NCBI GenBank assembly: GCA_048498835.1
Contig: JBEHXF010000029.1
Location: 1 to 24,035, forward strand
Direction of reading: 5' to 3'
Length of the DNA: 24,035 nucleotides
Source: Chlamydiota bacterium
GTDB lineage: Bacteria > Chlamydiota > Chlamydiia > Chlamydiales > SM23-39
In this document: one piece after another, positions 1,111 to 24,035 of the stretch
Position numbering within the stretch: the stretch's first letter is position 1
Layout: every line of letters begins with the position of its first letter
The notes under the pieces: generated by a model
What the model was told of the DNA's origin: nothing
The model's input: only the letters and a program-made list of their open reading frames with translations
The model's database searches: none
Translations under genes and position numbers: made by a program

Positions 1111-1189
1111 TTCGATTCAGATTGAGGGTATAAACGAGAAAGATATCAGCGCAGAGGAAAAGCAGAGGCGCTGAGACGCAGAGAAAAAA
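1111..1189. repeat. Dispersed CGCAGAG-type repeat, copy 1
   Basis: GCGCTGAGACGCAGAGAAAAAA (1168-1189) is the exact reverse complement of 13501-13522. AAACGAGAAAGATATCAGCGC and TTCGATTC further left also resemble the reverse complement of 13519-13561. Confidence 0.8.
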
Positions 1190-1223
1190 TGCGAGAGTAA
1201 TCAAAATTCAGAATTTCTTAAGG

Positions 1224-1300
1224 AACAGGATAAGTAGGATCGACAAAGTGGGCATGAGCAGCAGGATTATCTTTGGGTTGCAGGGCTTCCCTGCATCTTG
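1224..1300 (+). repeat. 77-bp direct repeat, copy 1
   Basis: AACAGGATAAGTAGGATCGACAAAGT...TTGCAGGGCTTCCCTGCATCTTG recurs at 1430-1506 with 2 mismatches. Confidence 0.95.
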
Positions 1301-1315
1301 TAATTTTATCGTTCC

Positions 1316-1415
1316 CATCGTTATATCGTTATATCGTTTTTTAGTCCTATTCCTCGAAAATTGTTCTGATTTAAGTAAAAAAACAACGATTAAACGATAT
1401 AACGATATAACGATG
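1316..1415. repeat. Perfect 24-bp inverted repeat built from 8-mer tandem units
   Basis: CATCGTTATATCGTTATATCGTTT (1316-1339) and AAACGATATAACGATATAACGATG (1392-1415). Confidence 0.95.
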
Positions 1416-1429
1416 AGAAAAGAACTTTA

Positions 1430-1543
1430 AACAGGATAAGTAGGATCGACAAAGTTGGCATGATCAGCAGGATTATCTTTGGGTTGCAGGGCTTCCCTGC
1501 ATCTTGCAAATCCTACCTGATCCTCCCGCGAAGCGGATCCTGT
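1430..1543 (+). repeat. 77-bp direct repeat, copy 2, plus complementary right arm (MITE-like unit)
   Basis: Repeat at 1430-1506. Left arm ACAGGAT..GTAGGAT is complementary to ATCCTAC (1510-1516) and ATCCTGT (1537-1543), with a CCGC-GAA-GCGG mini-hairpin (1526-1536) between them. Confidence 0.85.
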
Positions 1544-5545: not shown

Positions 5546-8500
5546 TTAAAAAGAGTATCCAATTTTTCCATAGAATTGATTGGAACTATAGCCACTTCCA
5601 AATTCTCCGTCGTAGCTAATGGAGCCGTAACCGTTCCAGTTCGTTTGCCAAAAGAGTTCAATGGCAGGAGAGAAGAGACTTTGCGCAGAGGTAAAGGACT
5701 CAACAACAAAGGATGTAGGAGCGCTCACGATGGCTGCATTGACCTGACCTACGTTATGGGGCTTTTTGTAGACGTAGCTCAACTTCGCTTGGGCGATGAA
5801 GGTTCCCCAGTTGTAGGTAGTTGTATTGTACCCATTGAGTCCTGTCTCGAAGCGCAACATCCACGATGTGCGAGAAGAGATCTTCATATTGTAGGGAGCG
5901 GCTCCTTTTTCTGAGTAGCTGGGATCCCATTCGCAAACCCAGTCTAGCAAAGCGAAGGGTTCGATGGTGCCAGTGGAGATGTTGAAATCGTAACCTGTAC
6001 CAAAATGGAGATCGAGTTGTCCCGCATGGTAGGAGCTTTTCGCCGTCTCATCAAATCCTGGGTAAGAAATAGTCCGTTTTTGATCGACGCCCATATATTG
6101 ACCCCAAATGGCTGCATCGAGGTAAAAATCGGAAAACGATTTCATTCCATAGACGCTTATGTAACCGGCATTCAGCTGACTATTGCCCACGGAGTTATGC
6201 TGTTGGATGGATGTGTGAGCATATCCAGCAAGCGTTCCGATGCATCCCTGATCGGTATTGCCGTAATCATAGGCGACAAAAAAGCCACCGTTATTGAAGT
6301 GAAAGCTCGGGGTTTGATCTTGAGAATTTTGACTATTAAAACCGCCAAAGCCCGTTGCCCAAATTTGGGAGGAAGTGTTCTTGGGTGGTGCATACATGGT
6401 GTCGCGGGGGGAGGGATTAGAATGAGCAGGGCGGCTCATAGCTAACTCTTCGTTTTCTGCCAAAAGAGCCGTTTCTTGGATCTGTCGATTTTTTTTCTGC
6501 TTAGAGGCCAATCGACGTTTGGTAAAGTGGGTTCCGAGCGACTCGGAAAACATAAACATCACGTTTTGGGCAGCAAAGGTGGAAATAGAAGTTCTAGCGG
6601 GGCTAATTGCTTCCAAAGCGTTTTCATATTCTGAAAAAGGGAGATTGTTTAGTAATTCATATTGATCCCTCAATCCCAATGATTCAGCCTCTGGACGTAG
6701 GGCATTGAGATAATTGGCCACTCTTCTATTGTTACCACGAAGTCCTTGCGTGGAAAGAACCGGAGGAAGATCGCTGGAGAATTCAAACTGCACATAAGTG
6801 GGCATTCCAAGGGGTAAATAGGAGAGTGAGTAACTCGTCGGAATGAATTGTGGAAAAAGGACAGAATCAAAAGTACCTGTAAGACCCGAAGAGGTAAGAA
6901 GGACGTATGATCCGGGCAAGGCGTTTGAGTCTAGATCGATCTCTAAAAAACCAGCCAACGCGGCAGTGTCGGTCACTGAAACAGAAGAGGTGCCTTCGGC
7001 ATCGATTTCGATATGCACGAGGCTTCCTAAGCTACCGCCTCCTTCGGGATTTAAGGTCAAACTGCGAAGAGTGAGTATTTGTCCCGGGTCTGGAGAAATT
7101 ATTCCAGAGTTGACAAAGACCATTCTATCAATGGTTCCATTTCCGCTTAATGTTCCCCTTTGTCCTGTTATTCTACAGACCGAAACTTGTTTTCCTATTG
7201 CGGACCCGATTAGGCCATTTACTTTGAAGTTTGCACTATTGATTGTGAAGTTTCCTTGAAAATCGGTTGTTCCGTTGTAAACAACCGTTCCATTTCCATC
7301 AATATAGATGTCCGTGCTTCCTCCTCCAAAAGATGTGTCATCGACAAATGAGACCTCTTCACCGAGTGTCAACAGATCGTTGGTGTCTTCCGCAGTCAAG
7401 AAAAGTCTAGAGCCTTGCCTCATAAAAATACTATTTCCTAGAGCTGATCCAGGATTTCCTGGTTCTGCTCCTGAAGCTCCCTCACCCCCGTTTCCAGCGA
7501 TTGCGAGTGTATTGACTGTATTGAAGAGAGTAGGAACACCTGAAAGCGCTTTTATCGTTAAATCTATACCACTATCGATAAAGATTGCCCCCCCAAGCCC
7601 GCTTCCGCCGCCGCCTCCTCCTCCCCCTGAACCCGCACTGACAACTGTAGCTCCGATTCCTCCAGAACCTCCGCCGAGATAGCCTATATCCATTCCGCCT
7701 GGAGACGCCGTGGAGCCATTAGTAGGCCCCCCGCCTCCGCCTCCACCTCCGCCTAAAGAATTACCACCGTTAGCTAGGGTGTCACCCGAACCATTGACTC
7801 CGCCGCCGCCTCCACCACCACCCGTTCCTCCTACACCACCTTCGACAGTATAGCCGCTCGCTTCATCACTTCCTAATCCAGCGCCACCGCCGCCGCCGCC
7901 ACCGTAACCTCCATTTCCGGCTGCTCCACAGATTAAATTGGATATTCCGTTAATGACAACACCGCCGCCGCCGCCACCACCGCCATCGGCTCCAGATCCT
8001 CCTGAGGGGGTAAAGCTAAATCCAGGTGCCCGGCCTCCTCTAGGTGGTTGTCCTTCTGTACCGCCAGCGCTTCCTCCGCCGCCCCCACCTCTCTCTCCGC
8101 TCTCTGTCATCGCATTTCCACCACCACCACCGCCACCATTCGCCCCGGGAGCATAGCCACCACCTCCCATGCCAGGCGAATTGACAAGGCCATAACCATT
8201 TCCTGCTAGTCCATCCTCTTGGTTGCCATCATCTTGATCTCCCCCGCCTGTTCCGAGATTCATAAGCATCCCAATGGTTGCGCGAGATCCGAAGCCACCT
8301 CCACCTCCGCCCCCGCCTCCTAGCGGATCATCAATAGGAGTAAGAACAGTCCCGCCATTTCCACCAAAACCGCCCCCGCCTCCACCCCCAGAACTACCGA
8401 CTACGGAAACACTTCCTCCATTACCCCAAAAACCACCTCCACCACCCGCTCCCTGAGTGCCTGTCCCCCCATCGTCGGAATAAGCTCCTCCAGTTCCACC

Positions 8501-9028
8501 TTCAGCAGTACAATTTTCGATCGATACATTCATTAACGTAATGGCAGGACTTCCAGAGATCAAAAAATTACTGGGTGCGTAGATGGCACCCCCAGCCCCT
8601 AGCCCACCGCCACCGCCAGAGATTCCATTTCCGCCATCTCCTCCTTTAGCTGTTAAGTTTTGAAACTTCATGTTTTGGATGGTGACAATTCCTGCAGGAA
8701 TAAAAAAACCGCCATACGTGCCTCCGTTCCCATCAATCGTAGTGGTAGCGGTGGAGCCAGAATTGCCGATGGTGATATTGACATTTAGCATGGAGTTATT
8801 GACGACCGGCAGAAGTCCATTGAGTTCAATTGTCATCGGCATGTCAAAAACGATCGCATAATCCTCTGCTGACGTTGATAAGTTTGTATTCATGGTGTTT
8901 ATGCACCATCTCAGATCGCCTGAATCTCCAAAGCCGCCGGGATTTAAGTCTGTCGGTAGGGATACATGAAGTGTTGTTAAGCCGAATAAGGAGTGAGCTG
9001 TGAAGAGAAATAGCCAATTTTTATACAT
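5546..9028 (-). CDS. Glycine-rich autotransporter (Pmp-like), paralog 1
   Basis: Signal-like N-terminus from ATG 9028, long Gly-rich passenger with GGAIY/GGAIF, and a C-terminal beta-barrel ending YGKIGYSF. Confidence 0.88.
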   Translation of the reverse strand: MYKNWLFLFTAHSLFGLTTLHVSLPTDLNPGGFGDSGDLRWCINTMNTNLSTSAEDYAIVFDMPMTIELNGLLPVVNNSMLNVNITIGNSGSTATTTIDGNGGTYGGFFIPAGIVTIQNMKFQNLTAKGGDGGNGISGGGGGLGAGGAIYAPSNFLISGSPAITLMNVSIENCTAEGGTGGAYSDDGGTGTQGAGGGGGFWGNGGSVSVVGSSGGGGGGGFGGNGGTVLTPIDDPLGGGGGGGGGFGSRATIGMLMNLGTGGGDQDDGNQEDGLAGNGYGLVNSPGMGGGGYAPGANGGGGGGGNAMTESGERGGGGGGSAGGTEGQPPRGGRAPGFSFTPSGGSGADGGGGGGGGVVINGISNLICGAAGNGGYGGGGGGGAGLGSDEASGYTVEGGVGGTGGGGGGGGVNGSGDTLANGGNSLGGGGGGGGGPTNGSTASPGGMDIGYLGGGSGGIGATVVSAGSGGGGGGGGSGLGGAIFIDSGIDLTIKALSGVPTLFNTVNTLAIAGNGGEGASGAEPGNPGSALGNSIFMRQGSRLFLTAEDTNDLLTLGEEVSFVDDTSFGGGSTDIYIDGNGTVVYNGTTDFQGNFTINSANFKVNGLIGSAIGKQVSVCRITGQRGTLSGNGTIDRMVFVNSGIISPDPGQILTLRSLTLNPEGGGSLGSLVHIEIDAEGTSSVSVTDTAALAGFLEIDLDSNALPGSYVLLTSSGLTGTFDSVLFPQFIPTSYSLSYLPLGMPTYVQFEFSSDLPPVLSTQGLRGNNRRVANYLNALRPEAESLGLRDQYELLNNLPFSEYENALEAISPARTSISTFAAQNVMFMFSESLGTHFTKRRLASKQKKNRQIQETALLAENEELAMSRPAHSNPSPRDTMYAPPKNTSSQIWATGFGGFNSQNSQDQTPSFHFNNGGFFVAYDYGNTDQGCIGTLAGYAHTSIQQHNSVGNSQLNAGYISVYGMKSFSDFYLDAAIWGQYMGVDQKRTISYPGFDETAKSSYHAGQLDLHFGTGYDFNISTGTIEPFALLDWVCEWDPSYSEKGAAPYNMKISSRTSWMLRFETGLNGYNTTTYNWGTFIAQAKLSYVYKKPHNVGQVNAAIVSAPTSFVVESFTSAQSLFSPAIELFWQTNWNGYGSISYDGEFGSGYSSNQFYGKIGYSF

Positions 9029-9078
9029 GAGGAAGCCTAAATTATTCTTGGCTATCGTAAGGTGTAAAAAAAAATTAT

Positions 9079-9945
9079 TCAATGACTAAAGCTGGGAAGT
9101 AAACTGAAGTCGATTCTTGGAGAGCTGTAATTCGGTCTCATCGCGAAAGCGATCGTTGCATAACGAGCGTTTCCACTCTCTAAAACTATGTGGGGAGTGG
9201 GGTAGATGGAAAATTCTGCGAGTAAAGTTCCGGGAATTAAAAGAATAGAATTCTGATCTTCTTGCCGTAAAAACTCTCTGTGAGCTGAAGAAAAATCTTC
9301 TGCTATGAAAGAGGATTTATAAGGAGATAAAAGAAGGGAGTCATTGTCTGTACTATCGAGAAAAAGAGAAAAAGCGGTGCCATCGTAATGAGGGATTGTA
9401 GCGAGATAAGAGGGGAGATATTTGATCACTTTGAGGAGAAGCGGAGGGTGCCCGTCTAGGGAAGAAAAAATCGAGTCGATGCCCAATTCCGTGGCCGCCT
9501 GATTAAACAGGCTTCCATATGGTTTTTGGATCTGTAAGCATGCCTCAAAAAAATGGAAAATTTCGGGGGTTTTTTTGAATTCTGGATAATGAGACCAGAT
9601 AAATTCATGGAAATGAGTCGAATAATAGAAAGAGATGTGGTTTCTTTTTTCTCTATTTGACTCATCGTAGAAACCAAAAAAATCGGTGGAGTAATAATTT
9701 TTGGCTTTTGAGCGGATAAAGCGCTCTTTCACGAGAAATAACTTTTGTTTCCATTGCGGATTTCTCTGAAGAAATTCAATGAACTCATCGAAAGAAGCAT
9801 AGAGGGCATTGAAAGCGATTGTTCCATTGTTTTGGTCGCAAACTTCAGCATAACCAGTGCGTTCAAATTGTTCAGCAAGTGGTATGTTAGAATGGGATGA
9901 AAAGGCCAGGAAAGTTGATAGAAAAAAAATCTTTTGAATGAACAC
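9079..9945 (-). CDS. 2OG-Fe(II) oxygenase-like protein with signal-like N-terminus
   Basis: HxD (PHYDG), distal His (PTPHIV) and RYATIAF match the facial triad and 2OG-binding Arg. Start is uncertain; GTG 9945 avoids overlap with the divergent gene. Confidence 0.68.
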   Translation of the reverse strand: MFIQKIFFLSTFLAFSSHSNIPLAEQFERTGYAEVCDQNNGTIAFNALYASFDEFIEFLQRNPQWKQKLFLVKERFIRSKAKNYYSTDFFGFYDESNREKRNHISFYYSTHFHEFIWSHYPEFKKTPEIFHFFEACLQIQKPYGSLFNQAATELGIDSIFSSLDGHPPLLLKVIKYLPSYLATIPHYDGTAFSLFLDSTDNDSLLLSPYKSSFIAEDFSSAHREFLRQEDQNSILLIPGTLLAEFSIYPTPHIVLESGNARYATIAFAMRPNYSSPRIDFSLLPSFSH

Positions 9946-13458: not shown

Positions 13459-13561
13459 AAAAATATCAGCGCAGAGTGTAACCGAAAAGAGAATCATTTC
13501 TTTTTTCTCTGCGTCTCAGCGCTGATATTTTTCTCGTTTCTCTTCCTTAACTCGAATCGAA
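13459..13561. repeat. CGCAGAG-type palindromic repeat, copy 2, between convergent genes
   Basis: 14-bp perfect inverted repeat AAAAATATCAGCGC (13459-13472) / GCGCTGATATTTTT (13519-13532); 22-bp identity with 1168-1189 on the opposite strand. Confidence 0.82.
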
Positions 13562-15037: not shown

Positions 15038-15745
15038 CTAGATTCTTTGTAATTCTGACCAAAGATGTTCGAAAAGCTCTTCTAATTCTTCGGAAGGGGG
15101 AGCGGATTTATGTTGGTGAGTGTACTGATTTGGATCTAGCTTGTAATAAGGCCGGAAGAAATCACAAAGTTTGGAAATGGGATCTTTTTCAATGTCAAAT
15201 ATCAGCAAATCTCCAGGTCGATCTTTGAAATATTCTAGAACGGCTTCATGGTGGTGATCCCACTCGAGACTCCATTCAGAGAACATTTCTAAAAGGCTAA
15301 GGCCATAAACGCGAGCCGAATCTTCCAGATAATGACCCTGTCTATGTGATACTCTACTTTTCAGCCACTTTTTTTTGTCTCTTGTGTTGAGAATGAATTT
15401 ACTTCCGGGATATTGCGAATCGAGTTCTTTAAAAAGCAGTTGGGCAATGTAGAGTTTCTCGTGTACACATTCTAGGTCGAAAAAGGCGACGATGTCTTGA
15501 TATTTTGGCCCAATCAGAGGCAATCCTCTTAAATAATTTTCATGGATTGAGCTGGCGAGAACTCCTCTATTCCAGTGGATACTTTTGATGTTGTTGTTTT
15601 GAAAAAACCGACTTAGAGAAGCGGTTCCGCAGCGATTAAAGCCAATTTGAAAAATCTTGGGTCGAGAGACGCTCCTCTGATCATTTGCTCGAGCTACCAT
15701 TCCAATGGGGAAAAAGAGAATCAACAACAAATAGAAGGTTTTCAT
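15038..15745 (-). CDS. Sulfotransferase-family (P-loop) protein with signal peptide
   Basis: KIFQIGFNRCGTASL (PAPS-binding-like), YPGSKFILNTRD..WLKS, YFKDRPGDLLIFDI and LCDFF. Confidence 0.78.
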   Translation of the reverse strand: MKTFYLLLILFFPIGMVARANDQRSVSRPKIFQIGFNRCGTASLSRFFQNNNIKSIHWNRGVLASSIHENYLRGLPLIGPKYQDIVAFFDLECVHEKLYIAQLLFKELDSQYPGSKFILNTRDKKKWLKSRVSHRQGHYLEDSARVYGLSLLEMFSEWSLEWDHHHEAVLEYFKDRPGDLLIFDIEKDPISKLCDFFRPYYKLDPNQYTHQHKSAPPSEELEELFEHLWSELQRI

Positions 15746-15859
15746 CGCGCCTCAATCACACGTTCGTTTTTCAAGAAGATGCCCTTTTTGCCATATAGAG
15801 TTTATACTAGAATACAAATTCCATATCGGAACGTTTAAGAGGAACATTCCAACATGGGA

Positions 15860-15917
15860 CTCACCTCCGGGCCCAGAATTTTCTGGGCTTTATTGGAGGT
15901 GGAGAGACGCATTTAGA
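15860..15917 (-). repeat. tmRNA 3'-end duplicate (att-like site D) within a fold-back
   Basis: TGGAGGTGGAGAGA at 15894-15907 equals 22651-22664. It is preceded by CTCACCTCC and the GCCCAGA/TCTGGGC hairpin. The flank CGCATTTAGA resembles TGCATTCAGA at site C. Confidence 0.85.
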
Positions 15918-16065
15918 GGGTGTTTGGTAATAAAATTTCGATCGCTTTTTCGGTTTGGCAACTTTAAAAAACAGTCTCTTAAGGTTAGCTAATGCTATTT
16001 TTCTTGAATTGCTAATTTTTTTTTTGCTTTATAGATAAAAGCAAGAATGAACACGGTCTGGTGAT

Positions 16066-19000
16066 ATGCAAAAAATCCTTTTTCACGCACAACTAATGTT
16101 TGCTGCCTGTATTTTATCGACCCATTCAATAGACGCCGCAACGAGACTTGTCATAAGTACTTCAAATGATCAGAACATGATGGGTACGTTGCCTTATTGG
16201 CTTCTAAATGCTGAAGACGGCGATATCATTGACTGTCATTCGATTGCAGGACAATCGATTCTTTTAACCTCTTCGCTCCCTGCGATCACGAAAAGCTATA
16301 CGATTCAAGGCGCCGGAATCACCATCGATGGAGCGAATAACTATCAAGCTTTTCAGGCGGCCTCAGGAACGACCGCGATCAATCATGTTATTATCCAACA
16401 TGCAATTTCTAAAGGAGGAAATGGTGGTAATGGATATTCGGGTGGTGGAGGTTCTGTCGGAGGAGGAGGAGCTCTTTACATCCATGGAGATGCTAGTATA
16501 ACCCTAATGACTTCTAGCCTTCTCAACAATACGGCTCAAGGTGGTGATGGAGGCTCCGGAAATTTGAATGGAATCAGTGGCGGCGGCGGCGGTGGTGGAT
16601 TTGGAGGGGGATCTGGGGGAAATTGTGTGCTCTTCGTGACCACAGGTGGGGGTGGAGGGGGGCATAGTAATGGTGGAAAAGGGGGAACTGACCCGGATAG
16701 TATCTCGAATGCAAATGGTAGTAACGGAGTTTTTTTTGGCGGCGGTGGTGGCGGCGCTGGGGGGAATTCAATGTCACATGGAGGCGTAGGTGGAAACGCA
16801 GCTCTCAATGGCGCATTTATAGGTGGCAACCAATCGGCCGGTAATGGCGGAGGGGGAGCAGGAGATAGTGAAAATGGTATTTCGGCGAGCGGCGGAGCGG
16901 GAAGCGGGGTGGCTGGAGATGGAGGCAGCGGGATTGGATCTGATTCTTTATTTGGAGGCGGTGGTGGCGGAGGCTCTTCAATGGAAAGCTCAAATCCTGG
17001 AGGGACTGGTGTAGGAGCTGCTGGAGGTGGCGGCAGCTCTATTGCTTCAGGAGGAGCGGGAGGGGTTCTCGGCGGCGGCGGTGGAGGCGGTGGTGTTATA
17101 GGTATTGGAGGGACGGGAGGATTTGGAGCTGGCGGTGGCGGGGCAGTCACTGGCGGCTTAGGCGGCGGTGGATTTGGAGCGGGAGGGGGCAATGGAGGAT
17201 CGGATCCAGTTGGAATAGCAGGTGGGGGCGGTGGTTCCGGATTGGGAGGAGCCATTTTCATCCAAAGCAATGGCAGCTTAACGATTGTAGATGCTGTGCA
17301 AATTTCTGATAATACAGTCATTGCTGGACTCGGAGGATCTTCAACTAGTTCAACCGACCCCGACTACATACCAGCTGGCGATGGAGCTGCTATGGGTTAT
17401 GACATCTTTGTCCGTGAGCAAGGGTCGATTACCTTTAATCTGAGCAATACATTAACGATTGAAACTCCTATTGAAGGAGATCAAACGAGCGGGCCGTCTA
17501 CAAGCGGAGGACTCAATAAACTCGGAAGAGGTAGATTAAACCTAACTGGGGAAAATACCTATTCAGGGACTACAGCAGTGGATGGCGGTACTCTCAACTT
17601 AAATGGAAGTGTGATCGGAAGTACTATAGTTGGCGTTGGAGCCACCTTTTCAGGCAATGCCACAGTGTTGGGCAATCTTACAAGCTCGGGCGTTTTAGCG
17701 CCTGGGAACTCGATTGGGACAATCCATACAACCGATCTGCTATTGCATTCATCCGGTCGACTAGAAATTGAAGTAGCCTCTGATGGGACAAACGATCTCA
17801 TTGATGCGACAGGAACGGCAGAGTTAGCTGGCCGCCTGGAGATGGATATCGATCTAGCTGCACCAACTGGAGCCTACACAGTTCTTACATCAGCGGCTAT
17901 TATAGGTTCTTTTAACTCTATTGCATTTACTGGAATCACGCCAAAGTATGCCATTTCCTATCTGCCAGATGGAGCTCCTACGTATGTACAATTTAATTTT
18001 TTAGGATTTCCAATCCTCCCTACGCAAGGTCTCTCTGGAAACAATTTAAGAGTTGCCCAATATCTCAATCAATTAATTCCCTACGCCAAATCGCTTGGGT
18101 TAGGAGATCAATATATTCTATTGGAGGGCCTTTCTGATTCTGCCTATCAAAACGCACTTCAATCAATCAGTCCTACAAGAAATTCGAGTCTCACATTCGC
18201 TGCGCAAAACATGATGTTTATGTTTTCCGATTCGCTTGAGTCCCATTTTACCAAAAGAAGGCTCGCTTATAGTCAAAAGAAATCGAGTCAGAAAAAGGAG
18301 CTAAGCTTCTTAGCAGACGAGGAACTTTTGGCAGCCAATCAACTCCCTCGTAAGACCTCCTCTTCTCCCAAAACTTCTCAAATTTGGGCAACCGGTTTTG
18401 GAGCTTTCAGCCGTCAAGATTCTCAAAATCAAACACCCGGCTTTAATTTCAATAGCGGCGGCCTCTTTATAGCGTATGATTACGGAAACACCGATCAAGG
18501 TTGTATCGGCGCGCTAGGTGGATATGCCCACTCATCGATTCAGGAAGACCATTCGATGGGAAGCGGCGATATCAATGCCGGATTCCTCAGTATCTACGGG
18601 ACACGATCTCTGTCTGATTTCTTTGTCGATGTGGCTATTTGGGGACAATGTATGGGAGTGGATCAAAAACGGAATATTTTCTTTCCGGGATTTGACAGCA
18701 CCGCCAAGAGTTCTTATCACGCAGGCCAACTCGATCTCCATTTTGGCACCGGCTATGATTTCAATCTCTACACTGGGACTATCGAACCCTTTGCGCTCTT
18801 AGACTGGGTCTGCGAATGGGATCCGACTTATTCAGAAACAGGCGCCACTGCCTATAATATGGAAATCTCATCCAAAAGTTCGTGGATGTTGCGCTTCGAA
18901 ACTGGTTTAAATGGTTATAACACCACCACATTCAGTTCAGGAGTTTTAATTGCTCGAGCAAAGTTAAGCTATGTTTACAAAAAGCCTCATCATGTAGGAA

Positions 19001-19200
19001 CTCTCAATGCAGCAATTGTCGGCGCTCCCATCTCCTTTTTTGTCGAAGCCTTTAGCGCCGATCAAAGTCTTGTTTCTCCTGCCGCCGAACTGTTCTGGCA
19101 AACAAATTGGAATGGTTACGGATCGATTAGCTATGACGGAGAATTTGGAAGCGGTTACACCTCGAATCAATTCTACGGAAAATTAGGCTATTTCTTTTAG
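16066..19200 (+). CDS. Glycine-rich autotransporter (Pmp-like), paralog 2
   Basis: Signal peptide, Gly-rich passenger with GGALY/GGAIF, a PATR-like repeat (LNKLGRGRLNLTGENTYSGTTAVDGGTL) and a beta-barrel ending YGKLGYFF. Confidence 0.9.
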   Translation: MQKILFHAQLMFAACILSTHSIDAATRLVISTSNDQNMMGTLPYWLLNAEDGDIIDCHSIAGQSILLTSSLPAITKSYTIQGAGITIDGANNYQAFQAASGTTAINHVIIQHAISKGGNGGNGYSGGGGSVGGGGALYIHGDASITLMTSSLLNNTAQGGDGGSGNLNGISGGGGGGGFGGGSGGNCVLFVTTGGGGGGHSNGGKGGTDPDSISNANGSNGVFFGGGGGGAGGNSMSHGGVGGNAALNGAFIGGNQSAGNGGGGAGDSENGISASGGAGSGVAGDGGSGIGSDSLFGGGGGGGSSMESSNPGGTGVGAAGGGGSSIASGGAGGVLGGGGGGGGVIGIGGTGGFGAGGGGAVTGGLGGGGFGAGGGNGGSDPVGIAGGGGGSGLGGAIFIQSNGSLTIVDAVQISDNTVIAGLGGSSTSSTDPDYIPAGDGAAMGYDIFVREQGSITFNLSNTLTIETPIEGDQTSGPSTSGGLNKLGRGRLNLTGENTYSGTTAVDGGTLNLNGSVIGSTIVGVGATFSGNATVLGNLTSSGVLAPGNSIGTIHTTDLLLHSSGRLEIEVASDGTNDLIDATGTAELAGRLEMDIDLAAPTGAYTVLTSAAIIGSFNSIAFTGITPKYAISYLPDGAPTYVQFNFLGFPILPTQGLSGNNLRVAQYLNQLIPYAKSLGLGDQYILLEGLSDSAYQNALQSISPTRNSSLTFAAQNMMFMFSDSLESHFTKRRLAYSQKKSSQKKELSFLADEELLAANQLPRKTSSSPKTSQIWATGFGAFSRQDSQNQTPGFNFNSGGLFIAYDYGNTDQGCIGALGGYAHSSIQEDHSMGSGDINAGFLSIYGTRSLSDFFVDVAIWGQCMGVDQKRNIFFPGFDSTAKSSYHAGQLDLHFGTGYDFNLYTGTIEPFALLDWVCEWDPTYSETGATAYNMEISSKSSWMLRFETGLNGYNTTTFSSGVLIARAKLSYVYKKPHHVGTLNAAIVGAPISFFVEAFSADQSLVSPAAELFWQTNWNGYGSISYDGEFGSGYTSNQFYGKLGYFF

Positions 19201-19301
19201 AAATTAGGAAGGTGGCTTGGCTTTTCGCAACGCTTAAAATGCCAAATCTAGTCGCCAAAAGTTAAGGCTTTAAGTCGAGGTTAAATTTTTTTAATACAAC
19301 C

Positions 19302-20039
19302 CTACTTATAGACAATTTTAATCACGTTTTCTTCTTTGTAGGTAGGCTTTAATTGGGGATTCTTATGATAGTAAATGACACGCTGTCCATAGCGTTCGCA
19401 AGCTTTCGCAACAGGATGGATGGTAGCTTGAGAAACTTCATTTCCAAATTTTGACTTAACTAAACCATTTTTGAGATAGAGTCCCATGTGTGTAAGATCT
19501 TCTTTAAAATATAGGACAAGATCTCCTTCTGCTGGAGATTGCGTAACTTCGTACCCCCATCTTGATAATCGCTCTTCCATTACCTTTTTACACGACCGTT
19601 TGCCAATAGGAGTAAAAAGGTTTTCTCTGACTGCTCTATCGCCAACCGCAAGCAAGGTATAATCAAAGCAAGAAAGAGTTTGTTTAGATAAAATCTTTCC
19701 CCATCGAGCTTGGAATTTTTGATTAATCGCAGAAATTTCCACTTTTAAATAACCTAATATTGCAAGATCTCTCTCAGAAAAATCATCGATTTTAGCATCA
19801 GATTCAAGATTGGTATCGAGTTTCAAATCATTTGCATCTTTTGCTGGATCTTTCCGCAGAAGGCAAACTGTTTTATGTGTTGGCCAATGAGCTTTTTGGC
19901 ACGATACCCCACAGTAGATCGCGGAACGACATCTTGCACATCGTTGTGTTGCGTCCTTTAGCCTGTCGCAATTTGGATTAAAACATTTATTTGCAAAGTG
20001 TTCTGGTTTGTTAGGGAAAGAAACTGGCAGAGCATTCAT
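19302..20039 (-). CDS. MYND zinc-finger protein with a possible papain/NlpC-like C-terminal domain
   Basis: CFNPNC...CARCRSAIYCGVSCQKAHWPTHKTVC is a MYND finger; the C-terminal part has SCFDY, GDLVLYF, THMG and SKFG. Confidence 0.85.
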   Translation of the reverse strand: MNALPVSFPNKPEHFANKCFNPNCDRLKDATQRCARCRSAIYCGVSCQKAHWPTHKTVCLLRKDPAKDANDLKLDTNLESDAKIDDFSERDLAILGYLKVEISAINQKFQARWGKILSKQTLSCFDYTLLAVGDRAVRENLFTPIGKRSCKKVMEERLSRWGYEVTQSPAEGDLVLYFKEDLTHMGLYLKNGLVKSKFGNEVSQATIHPVAKACERYGQRVIYYHKNPQLKPTYKEENVIKIVYK

Positions 20040-20186
20040 AAAATCCTATTTTTTGAATTTTCTGCAGGTAAGTATAGTCGATCATTTGTAATTAAGAATA
20101 GATACGGTTGCTTGACTACTTTCTGAGTAGTAGGAAGCGATTTGTGAACATCTCTTCCGATGATGCATCGGTGGGGACGCCGGTAG

Positions 20187-20274
20187 CGCAAAGCAAACTG
20201 TTGCCTTGCTCACCTCCAAAAAAAAATTGGGAAAACCTGGGTTTGTTTTTTGGAGGTGGAGAGATGCATTCAGA
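20187..20274 (-). repeat. tmRNA 3'-end duplicate (att-like site C) plus a copy of the tmRNA trailer
   Basis: 20187-20264 is a diverged direct repeat of 22583-22664 and includes TGGAGGTGGAGAGA at 20251-20264. Confidence 0.92.
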
Positions 20275-20302
20275 ACCGGCGACCAACGCAAGTTCACTTG
20301 TT

Positions 20303-21107
20303 TTAGTCTGCTCGTAAAAGAACGTTATCTAATATATACTGATATGAGAATAAGATATGAGTAGACGAAACTGCGTTTTGTTGTAACATATTAAGGGTCC
20401 AAGTAATTGCTTGGATATCAGAGTCTGTAGTAAGTAGCTGATATTCACCAATATTTACTGCTATTTTCTGAGCGGTTTCTCGGTTTTGAATCGTCCATCC
20501 TTCCGTGATACGTACAATACAACATTTTCCTGCAACATGAATAATATTGGGTCTTCGCGTTAAAGGAATATCTGGTTTTTCTCGATAAAATTCATTCAAA
20601 TGTGAAAGAAGGGTTGTGGGTAGTATGCTTTCGGTTGCATAAATTATTTTGAGAGGCCAGTCCTGATAATTTGGAATATTTAAAAGAGGCATCACGCGCT
20701 TATCCAAGGGCGACATTAAAGGAACGGAAGCTATTCCTTCCAAGGCATCAAATAGTTTGTTCCTTGTTAAGGGTCGATTTAACCGAAACAACGCCTAGAG
20801 TACCTTCTATTGGTGAAAATGATTTTTCTACTCCAGGTGTCGGCTTAAAACGTGGGGTCGTATCCGTTGTGATGATGATGTCTAATTGTCTTGATTCATT
20901 TTCTTTTTCATCAAAGACAAACCCTCCGAGAAAAACATTACATTTAGATGGAACGTGATTACGTAAAAACTCGGCATAAACACCTTCACGTGATAACCCA
21001 ACATCAGATGTATTGGGAAAGATGGAGGCGGCATCGGCCTCCCCTCGAAGGACTGCTGCTATTTTCTCATAATATTTACGCAGTCGTGAAAAGATGGGTG
21101 GGGGCAT
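20303..21107 (-). pseudogene. DUF6602-like (PD-(D/E)XK-type) protein split by a +1 frameshift
   Basis: N-part has GLSREG..EFLRNHVP, GGFVFD, SRQLDIII and SVKSTLNKEQ. Removing one A at 20756-20758 gives KEQLFDALEGIASVP and joins both track ORFs into 267 aa. Confidence 0.75.
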
Positions 21108-21184
21108 TTTTGGCAGTCTTCCTTATGAAAAAGAACCGGGAAAATTCCTAGGTCTACCATCTTTATGGATTGGGGGACGTTCGG

Positions 21185-22261
21185 TCATTTTTTGTTTCGC
21201 TCAGTTTGGTTTTTTTTTGATTTTTCCTTGGATAATTCAGCCTCAATCTGTTCAATTGTTGGCAAGCTGGTTTGTAGGTCATTGGGGAGAGACTCGATTA
21301 GCTTTGTTGTATAAGTCGCAACTCCAATTGGACGTCGGTTTTCTTGAAGAGTATATTCAACCATCAACTTCTTTTTTGTTTTGCATAGGATCATTCCAAT
21401 AGAAGGTGCGTCGCCAGGACCTTTAAGTTGAGCGTCGACTGCACTCAGATAAAAACCAACTTTCCCTGCATACTCAGGCTTGAATGGACCGCTCTTTAGT
21501 TCCACAACCACAAATCGCTTCAGCTTGAAATGATAGAACAGCAGGTCAATTAAAAATTCCTCCCCCTCAACTTCAATTCGATACTGTCGTCCGACAAAGG
21601 CAAAGCCAGTCCCTAACTCGACTAAAACTTTTTGAATATGTTCGACGAGCCCATTTTCGATTTCTGCTTCATCGGCCTTCTCTCGCATTCTTAGGAAATC
21701 GAAGCAGTAGGGGTCTTTGAGTTCAGCTTGAGCTAGATCTGAATCAGGGTGCGGGAGGGTTACTGCAAAATTTGTAATGGCTTTCCCTTGCCGGCTGTAT
21801 AGATCTGACTCAATCCACATTTCCAGAGTGTTGCGACTCCAGCCATTCTCAATTGTCTTTTTAGCATACCAAAATCGCTCTTCTATAGTTGTTAGCTTCT
21901 GGAGGAGAAGAATATTGTGCCCCCACGGAATTTGGCCAACAGCCTGTTGGCTAATTGCCAAATCCGGGTATTCTCTAGCAAATTGGACCATGTATTTGAT
22001 GTTAGTCAGTGAAAAACCTTTCATATCGGGAAACGCTGATCTAAGGTCTTTGGCAAGAGTTTCCACTGTTTTTGATCCCTAACCCTCATTTTTTTGCTTT
22101 AGAAGAATTTTTGTCCCTATTTCCCAGTAGAGACTAAGTAATTCACAGTTGACTGCTAAAGCAGCTTTGATCTGAGATGTGCGAATCCTCTCTCTCAAGA
22201 TTTCAAGTAACTCGGGATAGTCGATAGGGATTAAGTTTTGACTTTGGGTTGTTGTATTCAT
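21185..22261 (-). pseudogene. yhcG: YhcG/DUF1016 PD-(D/E)XK nuclease-like gene with an in-frame TAG
   Basis: LYWEIG, GFSLTNIKYM, KDPYCFDFL, ELGTGFAFVGRQY, IDLLFYH and VELK. The two track ORFs are in frame across TAG 22079-22081 (EG*GSK, where the family typically has GWG). Confidence 0.88.
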
Positions 22262-22436
22262 AACATGCCAATCATCTTTTTTGATTAAAGCATTGCAGTG
22301 TATCGGTGGGTAGGTAAAAAATCAAAAAAGATCTATGAAGTTCTGAAGCGCTAAAAAAGCGGGAGTTTTTAAATAAGACCTTTCAGAACTTGTAACTAAT
22401 GATTGTAAGCTTTTCTTTATAAGTCGATTGAGTGCT

Positions 22437-22469
22437 TAAAAGAGGGTTGGATGCTGATTGCATCCAACC
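22437..22469 (-). terminator. Probable intrinsic terminator after tmRNA-end copy B
   Basis: 10-bp stem GGTTGGATGC/GCATCCAACC (22445-22469) followed on the minus strand by CTCTTTT. Confidence 0.6.
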
Positions 22470-22472
22470 AAT

Positions 22473-22485
22473 TGGAGGTGGAGAG
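22473..22485 (-). repeat. tmRNA 3'-end duplicate (att-like site B)
   Basis: TGGAGGTGGAGAG is identical to 22651-22663. Confidence 0.85.
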
Positions 22486-22650
22486 CAGTCCTCCGGCGGG
22501 CGAAGCGCCCGTCCTGCCAGGCCGGTCGGTCTCGGTCGGTTTTTCGATGCGAAAAACATCGACCTTGGGCTCAATTCTCTCACGCAAGCCAAACTATTGG
22601 CTTGCTCACCTCCAAAAAAAAACCCGGGAAAACCCGGGTTTGTTTTTTTT
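22486..22650. other. GC-rich multi-hairpin non-coding spacer downstream of tmRNA
   Basis: Hairpins GGGCG-AAG-CGCCC, GGTCG.GTTTTTCG-ATG-CGAAAAAC..CGACC, GCAAGCCAA-ACTA-TTGGCTTGC and CCCGGG-AAAA-CCCGGG flanked by A and T runs. Confidence 0.8.
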
Positions 22651-23019
22651 TGGAGGTGGAGAGAATTGAACTCTCGTCCTTAGCAAGCTCGATCAACAGT
22701 CTCTACATGCTTAGAGCCTTATTGTAAGATAGCCTTGCTGCAAGGTGCGGCACTTGGGGCTAAATAAACCTTCTAGTTTCTCGGACTCCCTATTAGATGG
22801 TTCTAGAAGTTAGGGTCCATACCAAGATGTATGACGGTAAGATTCTGAAACTCTCGGTCTGATCTCAGGCTACCGCCAACCTTAAGCCGCTAGGCCTTCG
22901 AGTTGGAACTCAGAATTGTGTTCTGCGTTTATTAGTTAATCGGATTTTTTAGGAGGCCAACCGATCATCCTCCGCATGCAACCGATGCCTTACTCCCAAG
23001 TCGAAGCCTTGACACCCCC
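22651..23019 (-). ncRNA. ssrA: tmRNA
   Basis: 5' GGGGGTGTCAAGGCTTCGAC and 3' GAGAGTTCAATTCTCTCCACCTCCA form an acceptor stem with G3:U70 and a T-arm; CCA is not encoded. Tag frame 22926-22882 reads AEHNSEFQLEGLAA*. Confidence 0.96.
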
Positions 23020-23121
23020 GCAAAAGATACGATCCTCGTACCTTAAGCGGGAAGGTAAATGCTTAAGGAATATAGCTCTATTTTATCATGGAAAGGGGAT
23101 TTAATGCTAAATGATTGGCTA

Positions 23122-23595
23122 TCAATGCATCATTTGGCTCACTGGTCCCGCTGCGGGAGCTGGTTTTTGAGCGACGCAACAGTTAAAGGCATAACAGCAT
23201 TTAGAGCAGGTATAACCAAATTTCTTATTGCAACAGGTGATGTTGTCGCTGGCTGAGAGGTTGCCGATGTCTTGATTTTCGGAGGCGGTGATGAGGCCGT
23301 TGCAGCAGCTGATGGAGTGGCTTTCGGAAAGGGGGCCTTGTTGATCAGCGGAAGTGCAGAGACCATTGCAGCAATTCATTTTGGAAGAGTTGTCGCAGAG
23401 TCCCACTTTTTGACTGCACTGGCAGATTCGGCAATCGAGGCTGCAAGCGCAGCGGATGTTGGCTATTTTATCGCAACAGGCGGGGATGGCTTTCCAACAA
23501 TGCCCTAAACAAGTGCCTATTTTTTCTCAGTTGCGCGCCAAGAAGGGGAGGCCTTCTTTCGCTACACAGCAAACACAATCTACCAAAGCAGCCAT
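23122..23595 (-). CDS. Cysteine-rich protein (157 codons) interrupted by one in-frame TGA; pseudogene or recoded gene
   Basis: GGAG RBS then ATG 23595: MAALVDCVCCVAKEGLPFLARN*EKIGTCLGHCWKAIPACCDKIANIRCACSLDCRICQCSQKVG, continuing in frame into the track ORF 23122-23406. Ends TGA TAG. Confidence 0.65.
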
Positions 23596-23744
23596 AGTCG
23601 CTCCGCATTATCTTAATTATATTTTGATAAATTTAGAGACTTTGAGGATTTAAGACAATGGGCAGGTCATAATCGGCTTTTTTACATAAAAGAAAAAAGG
23701 TGCCTGTTTGCGAGCCGCTCTCCAGTCAGATCGGATGAAAACGA

Positions 23745-24035
23745 TTAAGAAGTTTTTGCTTCATCCGGATTAGGTGCCTCAAGCTTTCCCATGGTTTGAT
23801 TCCAAGCAACCTCGAAATAATTTTTATCTAAGTTTTCTTTCATAACTTTCAGATAAGCTAAAAAGGCTTTATTAATAATTTCGTCGGGTATTCTTGTTCC
23901 ATCTTTATATTGGTATGTATTATAGCTATAATCGGTGCGGAATGTGTTGTAAGTGCAGTTTGGTAAGTATTTTTGATCCAAAAAAACGTGCTTTACTCTC
24001 ACGGTACTCTTTGAATCTGGAGATGCTATAATATG
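23745..24035 (-). CDS. Hypothetical protein, C-terminal part (continues beyond the window)
   Basis: Frame is open to the window edge (HIIASPDSKSTVRVKHVFLDQKY...). Confidence 0.6.
   Translation of the reverse strand, partial: HIIASPDSKSTVRVKHVFLDQKYLPNCTYNTFRTDYSYNTYQYKDGTRIPDEIINKAFLAYLKVMKENLDKNYFEVAWNQTMGKLEAPNPDEAKTS

Follow-up and report, generated by a model that had tools for sequence, protein, structure and literature searches.

A composite array behind the tmRNA gene of a Chlamydiota bacterium, probably built by two unrelated kinds of mobile DNA

Introduction

Tandem genomic islands at ssrA, the gene for transfer-messenger RNA (tmRNA), are known from Dehalococcoides, where they are linked to the serine integrase DsiB and where, in the sections of the published account on which we draw, 15 of 31 islands carry no integration module (McMurdie et al. 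2011, PMC3146451). In streptococci, cis-mobilizable elements (CIMEs) are presented as derived by deletion from integrative and conjugative elements (ICEs) or integrative and mobilizable elements (IMEs); the microCIMEs are gene-less and 130–220 bp long (PMC7563491, in part). Here, we analyzed a window of 24,035 nucleotides from a Chlamydiota bacterium (contig JBEHXF010000029.1, assembly GCA_048498835.1), in which a tmRNA gene is followed by further copies of its own 3′ end. The four repeats start at 22651 (A, the native end), 22473 (B), 20251 (C) and 15894 (D). We give a probability of roughly two in three to the reading, taken as a whole, that they are junctions of two unrelated kinds of mobile DNA inserted successively at the tmRNA 3′ end: blocks B–C and C–D would derive from islands encoding a large serine recombinase (LSR), and A–B from a mini element. 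In this reading the array is real, composite and partly explained, with B, C and D belonging to a different system from A–B.

Results

Four tmRNA-end repeats delimit the array

An original prediction, made from the sequence of the window alone, had placed copies of the tmRNA end at these four positions in one orientation. Our search agreed: the 13-mer occurs at all four sites in the same orientation and nowhere else in the 88 contigs of the source genome (G000; 1.97 Mb, 97% complete), against a chance expectation of 0.045 copies per genome. (Handles beginning with G, L and P denote genomes, loci and proteins.) A 14-mer version is found at A, C and D. The measured spacings of 178, 2222 and 4357 bp match the predicted block sizes, and the trailer of about 65 bp attributed to both A and C is present with 78% identity; the trailer of D retains a remnant of it. 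Pfam confirmed the proposed cargo families (YhcG, DUF6602, zf-MYND and autotransporter), which are indeed unrelated between blocks. As anticipated, no recombinase was found among the 23 open reading frames (ORFs) of the window that were scanned, and the cognate family is also absent from the genome. When related genomes were compared behind ssrA, breakpoints fell at the repeats, right ends were common across blocks, and successive insertion at ssrA was borne out. A scan of 15500–24035 against Rfam returned tmRNA only, the other seven matches lying under the gathering score.

The cargo blocks end in the right arm of an LSR island family

The right arm of a chlamydial island family closes both B–C and C–D; in relatives, the LSR gene of this family is seen to read through its own attachment site. 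Full-length LSR relatives of about 496 aa combine Resolvase, Recombinase and zinc-ribbon domains, and in several relatives the C-terminal part reads into the tmRNA from the opposite strand. The frame runs through the repeat, which encodes WRWR; the tails then continue either as WRWR-ESNSRP, the antisense of the native tmRNA (26/120 matches), or as WRWR-DAFRT, the translated conserved right end (2/120 matches). On its plus strand, the window reads WRWRDAFRT at C, as in the LSR C-termini of P0018 and P0034, WRWRDAFRG at D and, at B, a decayed tail ending in HPTNWRWR. The inner flank that C and D had been said to share holds for only about 9 nt at D, where it is the island end; the adjoining ‘AGA’ belongs to a truncated 174-bp repeat resembling a miniature inverted-repeat transposable element (MITE).

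Five complete islands of 6.6–10.3 kb share one right end, for which we derived a consensus of 17 positions and scored junctions as x/17. Its motif also precedes tRNA-Tyr copies in L112 and L120. The native tmRNA end adjoins an LSR gene in at least 16 of 80 LSR loci, while others lie at tRNA-Tyr, tRNA-Leu and further tRNAs. Right-end scars were found in 58 of 103 genomes of the family, with up to 11 per genome and zero control matches. LSR matches occur in 28 of these genomes, and a close, near-full-length gene in five, one of them with a stop. The 26 ORFs beside the LSR in seven islands include SpoVG, AAA_25/DnaG-zinc or DUF927, and helix-turn-helix (HTH) proteins.

No cognate LSR was detected in the source genome by resolvase and LSR recombinase domain searches or with an LSR protein query, apart from one weak tblastn match on C28 (25% identity, E 0.006). 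Domain searches of this genome for Y1 transposase, resolvase, IS110 and LSR recombinase gave nothing; tyrosine recombinases (PF00589) gave three matches, namely two Xer-sized proteins and a tRNA-Asn integrase, and the only GIY-YIG match was a UvrC-sized frame of 611 aa.

In this reading, complete LSR islands are transient visitors that likely integrate near the last bases of the tmRNA. A crossover near tRNA-equivalent positions 71/72 is suggested by a symmetry peak between these positions in 5/5 islands together with a recurrent core variant that differs at positions 62–64 and lies inside tmRNA arrays (e.g. G035). With integration there, most of each apparent tmRNA copy would be island DNA mimicking the target. 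Separately, we observed the same LSR clade at tRNA 3′ ends in Patescibacteria records (L129–L164); the clade spans Chlamydiota and Patescibacteria.

Recombinase-less blocks in related genomes

We located the tmRNA in 60 related genomes and retrieved downstream DNA for part of these. Each of the five genus mates differs here: one has a block of 2.4 kb and another one of 4.5 kb, a third has two mini elements, a fourth shows no repeat within the available 2.3 kb, and the fifth has a recombinase tail. The recombinase fragment of a genus mate has relatives named as Chlamydiota, and the source organism is likely an environmental chlamydia. Neither cargo nor flank of the window was common to any genus mate (12 loci compared), so that no empty-site strain was found. 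Arrays can be long, as in G020 with 14 repeats in 16.2 kb. Our census covered blocks >400 bp in 31 loci, including the two of the window, with a lenient motif match that misses repeats with more than one mismatch. It yielded 54 blocks, of which 42 end in one conserved right end, eight in a full T-arm copy and four in other sequence. No LSR trace was visible in 35 of the 42 right-end blocks (median 1.3 kb), and the right ends of LSR-less blocks score 15.1 of 17, compared with 16.0 for complete islands.

The second kind of integrase-less block at the tmRNA, seen in L045 (G020), L040 and L097, ends in the full T-arm copy after tandem arm-like repeats. An orphan 37-nt tmRNA fragment lies beside an arm-like repeat of this right-end type in the source genome (G000 C22:16470-16506).

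The cargo survey comprised 96 ORFs from 23 loci of relatives (Pfam, E 1e-6). It contained no integrase or recombinase family; there was one transposase HTH, and one unmatched ORF proved to be a recombinase tail. Most ORFs were GNAT, Fic, RhuM, toxin-antitoxin, regulator or hydrolase genes or had no assigned function. The relatives' cargo is generic accessory material, and the predicted accumulation of mainly host-interaction genes did not hold up.

The left end of block B–C suggests how such units may travel. A 9-bp motif of the right end recurs within the LSR tail as two inverted copies; the six codons concerned are identical in 41/41 genes, and one further Glu codon is also invariant. Since most other conserved residues nearby use their modal codon in only 33–94% of cases, and thus vary synonymously, the constraint acts on DNA or RNA. 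At B this region is non-coding, shifted by one base, and retains 18/18 motif bases against about 50% identity around them, falling to chance level past nt 140. The pattern occurs in 8/103 family genomes, six in the shifted and two in the coding form. Six other loci (G011, G442, G375, G358, G452 and L205) have the same trimmed, one-base-shifted left end, each with other cargo, and between them four kinds of junction precede it. B–C therefore likely travelled without an enzyme. This favours a recombinase-less class moved in trans; B–C would be a member whose trimmed left end, with two predicted binding motifs, was used by the recombinase of a helper island, whereas deletion probably removed both the left end and the enzyme of C–D.

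Simple decay of integrase-bearing islands, an alternative already raised in the original prediction, is partly supported: relatives have complete islands, and the blocks of the window show damage, but the left end at B resembles the conserved end of a non-autonomous element more than a product of random decay. In its general form, this account makes all cargo blocks plain relics that arrived as complete LSR islands, had the enzyme deleted in place and could at most be mobilised in cis with a neighbouring island. We consider it unlikely, although LSR genes are found far more often as fragments, of many lengths, than intact, the blocks of the window are damaged both in their genes and at their ends, one G008 block has at its left end a host-trailer copy of 150 bp, which suggests local origin, and a relic fate is what parts of PMC3146451 and PMC7563491 describe for module-less islands. 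Against it, seven loci share a left end that is trimmed immediately past the two motifs, keeps both of them and is shifted by one base in every case, and LSR-less right ends are as conserved as LSR-bearing ones. A 1.2-kb rhuM unit, both boundaries included, also recurs in different genomes at 76–79% identity. The L205 block matches the right kilobase of the complete island L095 at 79%.

Equally doubtful is an integron-like platform, in which single-site cassettes (terminator, gene and one right-arm site) would be excised and re-inserted at ssrA by the LSR in trans, as IntI does with attC. In relatives, many blocks hold a single gene in 0.55–1.5 kb, the right end being intact and the left end of the terminator type, LSR-less blocks follow complete islands in L095, L097 and L127, and the abundance of scars in the family would also fit. 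However, most genomes lack a resident integrase at the array head, the two blocks of the window have another anatomy, and no attC-type fold is seen at C or D. Moreover, serine integrases normally need matched site pairs. The enzyme in question is a serine recombinase on 6.6–10.3 kb islands, and an integron-like array, in the sense of membership, is not supported.

A gene-less mini element with target-matched antisense arms

One gene-less element of 110–260 bp, which lies behind many tRNA and tmRNA genes and carries host-matched antisense arms, accounts for A–B and for the remnants that follow C and D. A–B starts with a terminator, followed by an antisense copy of tmRNA positions 66–73, a 25-nt hairpin, an antisense copy of positions 55–65, more hairpins and the direct copy. 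The array had been assigned to one element family, which fails here: A–B is unrelated to the LSR ends and matches the right-end consensus at 4/17 positions. We also rejected the LSR as the enzyme that moves it, as the unit has neither LSR motif nor LSR tail.

In the source genome, the element layout follows seven genes (tmRNA, tRNA-Lys, two tRNA-Leu and three tRNA-Ser), and the arms match the local gene. The hairpin pattern gave ten matches compared to none in three shuffles, seven of them within 50 nt after an annotated tRNA or tmRNA. The tmRNA form was found in 9/401 genomes of the order, in two families, and the element occupies the tmRNA in 2/6 genomes of the genus. The general pattern occurs in 26/91 family genomes with no control match, and G020 holds four near-identical tandem units.

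A metagenome scan for the hairpin recovered at least 122 loci, and 13 matches at locus edges were dropped before arms and positions were counted. Among the matches listed, 82/110 lie within 130 nt after a tRNA or tmRNA gene, and these genes are of 36 types. We scored arm pairing with the element's own gene over 18 positions, with 15 or more as a pass; this was reached in 56/110 listed matches versus 3/110 when genes were swapped. An exact 10-nt direct copy follows 112–256 bp on in 42/82 listed matches, starting at position 56 in 23. The hairpin splits the arms at 65/66 in 18/24 listed cases that passed an 85% filter, and this acceptor/T-stem junction is listed as an attachment subsite in the Islander paper (PMC4383910, in part). 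Hairpin pairs that the search pattern leaves unconstrained were all Watson-Crick, in 110/110 listed metagenome matches and in a further set of 33/33. In the 82/165 matches passing the arm filters, 1385/1550 arm positions were Watson-Crick, and the departures showed no G-U bias (23 G-U, 32 A-C). The idea that the arms are copies of the tRNA's own 5′ strands was rejected, because 23/28 wobble or mismatch positions follow the complement.

Hairpin searches of viral contigs gave no match, and Rfam on 12 metagenome loci reported only tRNA and tmRNA. Our literature search, with most subscription journals outside it, found no description of the element. A–B appears to represent an undescribed kind of mobile DNA, widespread and with no known enzyme. 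Insertion probably takes place at the T loop, with the element as a folded single DNA strand whose arms may pair with the target and whose hairpin may bind an enzyme supplied in trans; the element would also supply a terminator. We tentatively suggest, while holding the proposal as a whole to be less probable than its failure, that A–B is a DNA-guided miniature insertion element. Its arms would be reset with every new tRNA or tmRNA target and would act jointly with the constant hairpin as the guide for the enzyme; Chlamydiota would share it with other uncultured bacteria of groundwater and sediment; and at the tmRNA it would interleave with LSR cassettes, insertion or partial deletion swapping island left ends for a terminator-bearing, target-like junction and so letting the array grow.

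Several further loci deserve mention. A small GIY-YIG gene lies just past one mini element (L233:1425-1943) and a reverse-transcriptase-like gene past another (L186:530-1453), both single cases. At G000 C39:18850-18965 and in L312, a mini element at a contig end has arms that fit a hairpin sequence beside it which is not annotated as a tRNA, and G437 has the same layout. At G000 C15:28800-29073, tRNA-Thr(cgt) is followed by 98-bp tandem repeats with anticodon and T arms and a palindrome like that in some mini elements. G000 C46:12400-12620 (L080) combines an LSR-type right end with a degenerate tRNA-Leu-like end and a Leu-type mini element, no annotated tRNA being near, and is likely the far part of a tRNA-Leu array.

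The mini element could instead be a cis-acting RNA structure on the precursor tRNA or tmRNA which controls processing or termination and co-evolves with each gene. Its place in the read-through transcript, its leading terminator and its good folding as RNA are what such a structure would show. We nevertheless rate this as quite improbable, given the patchy distribution among close genomes, the tandem copies and direct repeats, arm mismatches free of G-U preference, and the position of the antisense arms past the terminator.

That a tyrosine recombinase of the source genome (the 422-aa tRNA-Asn integrase or XerC/D) made the junctions in trans is very improbable. These are the only recombinases found in the genome, and the arrays of relatives include a further type of right end that has a full T-arm copy and arm-like repeats, but C and D carry the LSR-type end and B an LSR tail, and the island at tRNA-Asn has a repeat of its own at a distance of 8.8 kb. 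At most, such an enzyme may act on the mini element. The island itself (G000 C3:14300-23253; L083, L033) spans about 8.8 kb and has an intact integrase and a long tRNA 3′-half repeat. A 4.4-kb block after tRNA-Met (G000 C6:46100-50656; L082) is likewise bounded by a long tRNA repeat and contains ORFs of 972 and 300 aa and no integrase.

Returning to the two-system reading, a number of points weigh against it. Within the family, the LSR is matched mostly by C-terminal fragments that vary in length, which is what plain decay predicts, and the symmetry signal at the presumed crossover is weak (9–13 of 25). An LSR-type left end was found in only 10/42 right-end blocks, the rest starting with terminators or other sequence, and therefore two-ended mobilisation in trans cannot be a general rule. 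Only 4/7 blocks with the trimmed left end have a visible right end, three having none within 7–15 kb, and the motif pair could be an RNA stem instead of a protein site. The stop in yhcG and the frameshift in DUF6602 could be assembly errors. For the mini element, the direct copy was found in only 42/82 listed metagenome matches, tandem units could stem from slippage between repeats, and the 105 ORFs neighbouring mini elements contained no recurrent enzyme family, with one GIY-YIG and one weak reverse transcriptase. No movement was observed: there were no circles, no empty sites and no close strain for comparison.

Features and damage of the array in the window

The features of the array are compiled in Table 1.

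Table 1. Coordinates of the tmRNA gene, the repeats and the features between them
Feature	Position	Strand	Remarks
tmRNA gene	22651..23019	-	ARAGORN; tag AEHNSEFQLEGLAA; proposed target of both mobile systems
Site A, native tmRNA 3′ end	22651..22663	-	tRNA-equivalent positions 61-73
Mini element A–B, gene-less	22486..22650	-	folding z -11.4 as DNA, -9.8 as RNA, folded with tmRNA T arm
Terminator-like hairpin of mini element	22620..22641	-	
Antisense copy of tmRNA acceptor strand	22607..22614	-	positions 66-73
25-nt covarying hairpin	22582..22606	-	splits antisense copy at acceptor/T-stem junction
Antisense copy of tmRNA T stem and T loop	22571..22581	-	positions 55-65
Site B	22473..22485	-	direct copy closing mini element; also left junction of block B–C
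Trimmed non-coding LSR left end	22335..22472	-	terminator hairpin 22445-22469; two inverted AGTTCTGAA motifs 22382-22391, 22339-22348
yhcG (DUF1016/PD-(D/E)XK)	21185..22261	-	broken by in-frame stop at 22079-22081
DUF6602 gene	20303..21107	-	interrupted by frameshift near 20757-20770; nearest relative a single protein of 270 aa
LSR-type right end at C	20264..20286	-	12/17 to consensus; outer part lost
Site C core	20251..20263	-	
5′ part of second mini element, internally deleted	20150..20250	-	terminator, antisense arm, hairpin 20186-20210
zf-MYND protein	19302..20039	-	245 aa, intact
Glycine-rich autotransporter	16066..19200	+	1044 aa, intact; 55% identical paralogue at 5546-9082
Truncated end of 174-bp MITE-like repeat	15913..15955	+	cuts right end at D
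Remnant of LSR-type right end at D	15907..15915	-	
Site D core	15894..15906	-	
Trailer of D	15860..15893	-	hairpin and antisense acceptor arm; likely third mini-element remnant

On the plus strand, the trimmed left end of B–C consists of decayed last codons of an LSR gene. The left end of this block is intact and its right end partial; C–D has no left end, and its right end is interrupted by the MITE-like repeat. Neither block contains recombinase or transfer genes. The outer right end at C is lost, the start of C–D is what remains of a mini element, and the right end at D is interrupted; both blocks are therefore probably fixed and no longer mobile. The second mini element holds a remnant of an inner palindrome that is whole in G020.

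A related autotransporter (63%) sits just inside an LSR-type right end in G235, which makes the autotransporter a plausible cargo type. The window also contains a second, inverted glycine-rich autotransporter at 5546-9082, whose DNA is 74% identical to that of the cargo gene across the beta domain; no zf-MYND paralogue was found in the genome. The 174-bp MITE-like repeat has four other copies in the genome; the family, whose members measure about 174 bp, have terminal inverted repeats and lie between flanks of TTA/TAA type, is represented at G000 C2, C5, C11 and C83. A promoter scan of the array head gave seven promoter-like sites compared to 12.4 in shuffles. Elsewhere in the window (1132-1509, 2955-2974, 13459-13539), an 80-nt direct repeat occurs twice 206 bp apart with a third partial copy, and short palindromic repeats are common to 1132-1189 and 13459-13539.

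Discussion

The LSR system illustrates how intracellular environmental chlamydiae, long considered genetically isolated, gather accessory genes at one site. With scars in 58/103 genomes and close near-full-length LSR genes in five, the enzyme is present in few genomes at a time, and island finders that require an integrase per unit miss such arrays. The trimmed left end is a candidate for a minimal site pair, and a tmRNA-aimed serine integrase might prove useful as a tool for integration. The mini element is the more unusual of the two systems and bears most of the interest; if its arms are a reprogrammable guide, it would represent a new mode of targeting, and the Chlamydiota offer hosts with long contigs and tandem copies for an enzyme search.

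Integrons are arrays of small accessory-gene units with a common end, served by the tyrosine recombinase IntI at attC sites. The cargo array resembles them in its small accessory-gene units with a common end. However, there is no IntI beside it, the enzyme being a serine recombinase on a passing island, and C and D consist of an LSR arm and a tmRNA-like core with no attC fold by inspection and Rfam scan, no dedicated attC model having been applied. Integron attC and the attP of CTX phage are folded single-strand sites, that is, target-like duplexes with an extruded feature. A–B has a similar predicted single-strand fold, but its arms are reset for each tRNA, and no dif-like or attC-like sequence was seen. 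It also differs from a MITE, as its inverted sequence is an internal target copy and its repeat comprises 13–18 bp of an RNA gene end.

Tycheposons and the tRNA-seeded islands of Prochlorococcus likewise involve transient elements, partial tRNA copies and accretion of remnants (10.1101/2020.12.28.424599, in part). Unlike here, they mostly use tyrosine recombinases (910/937), and an antisense mini element is not described in the corresponding sections (10.1101/2020.12.28.424599). Composites of the staphylococcal cassette chromosome (SCC) are similar in being LSR islands in tandem at the 3′ end of an essential gene, with att pairs that have no recombinase between them (PMC13739063, in part). SCC, in contrast, has CcrAB/C, the rlmH target and the core TATCATAA (PMC13739063); relatedness was judged here by shared Pfam domains.

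Tandem recombinase-less units with att ends are also characteristic of CIMEs and microCIMEs, and A–B, being 178 bp long, gene-less and placed between repeats, fits the microCIME size (PMC7563491, in part). Unlike a microCIME as presented there, it has no cognate island end, carries target-matched antisense arms, and uses one backbone at many different tRNAs.

The closest counterparts of the cargo array are the Dehalococcoides islands, to which the comparisons below refer as far as the sections cited go (PMC3146451). Both have tandem islands behind ssrA between 3′-end repeats, a conserved motif directly before the repeat, units without the module, and a reverse-strand LSR gene whose 3′ end overlaps attL, which here is seen in relatives, the window having only the decayed tail at B. 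The repeat here measures 13–14 bp rather than 20, the motif differs from the published 15-bp one, and the units are much smaller. None of the families of the six-gene Dehalococcoides module (with DsiA, RecF-like, ParB, Mom and large proteins) was found in the 26 ORFs beside the LSR in seven islands; whereas that module includes DsiA, ParB and Mom, the one here combines a SpoVG-like protein, a primase/helicase, a further unassigned gene and the LSR. The crossover here likely lies in the acceptor end, as identity starts at 60–61 and core variants point 3′, compared to the T loop's middle in Dehalococcoides. A defined trimmed left end is a feature here and is not part of that description (PMC3146451). 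For an LSR with attP in its C-terminus at a tRNA, we likewise found no description in the literature, most subscription journals being outside the search. Taken together, the cargo array is a variant of the known ssrA-island type, which acts like the Dehalococcoides islands with their module absent and is damaged in the source genome.

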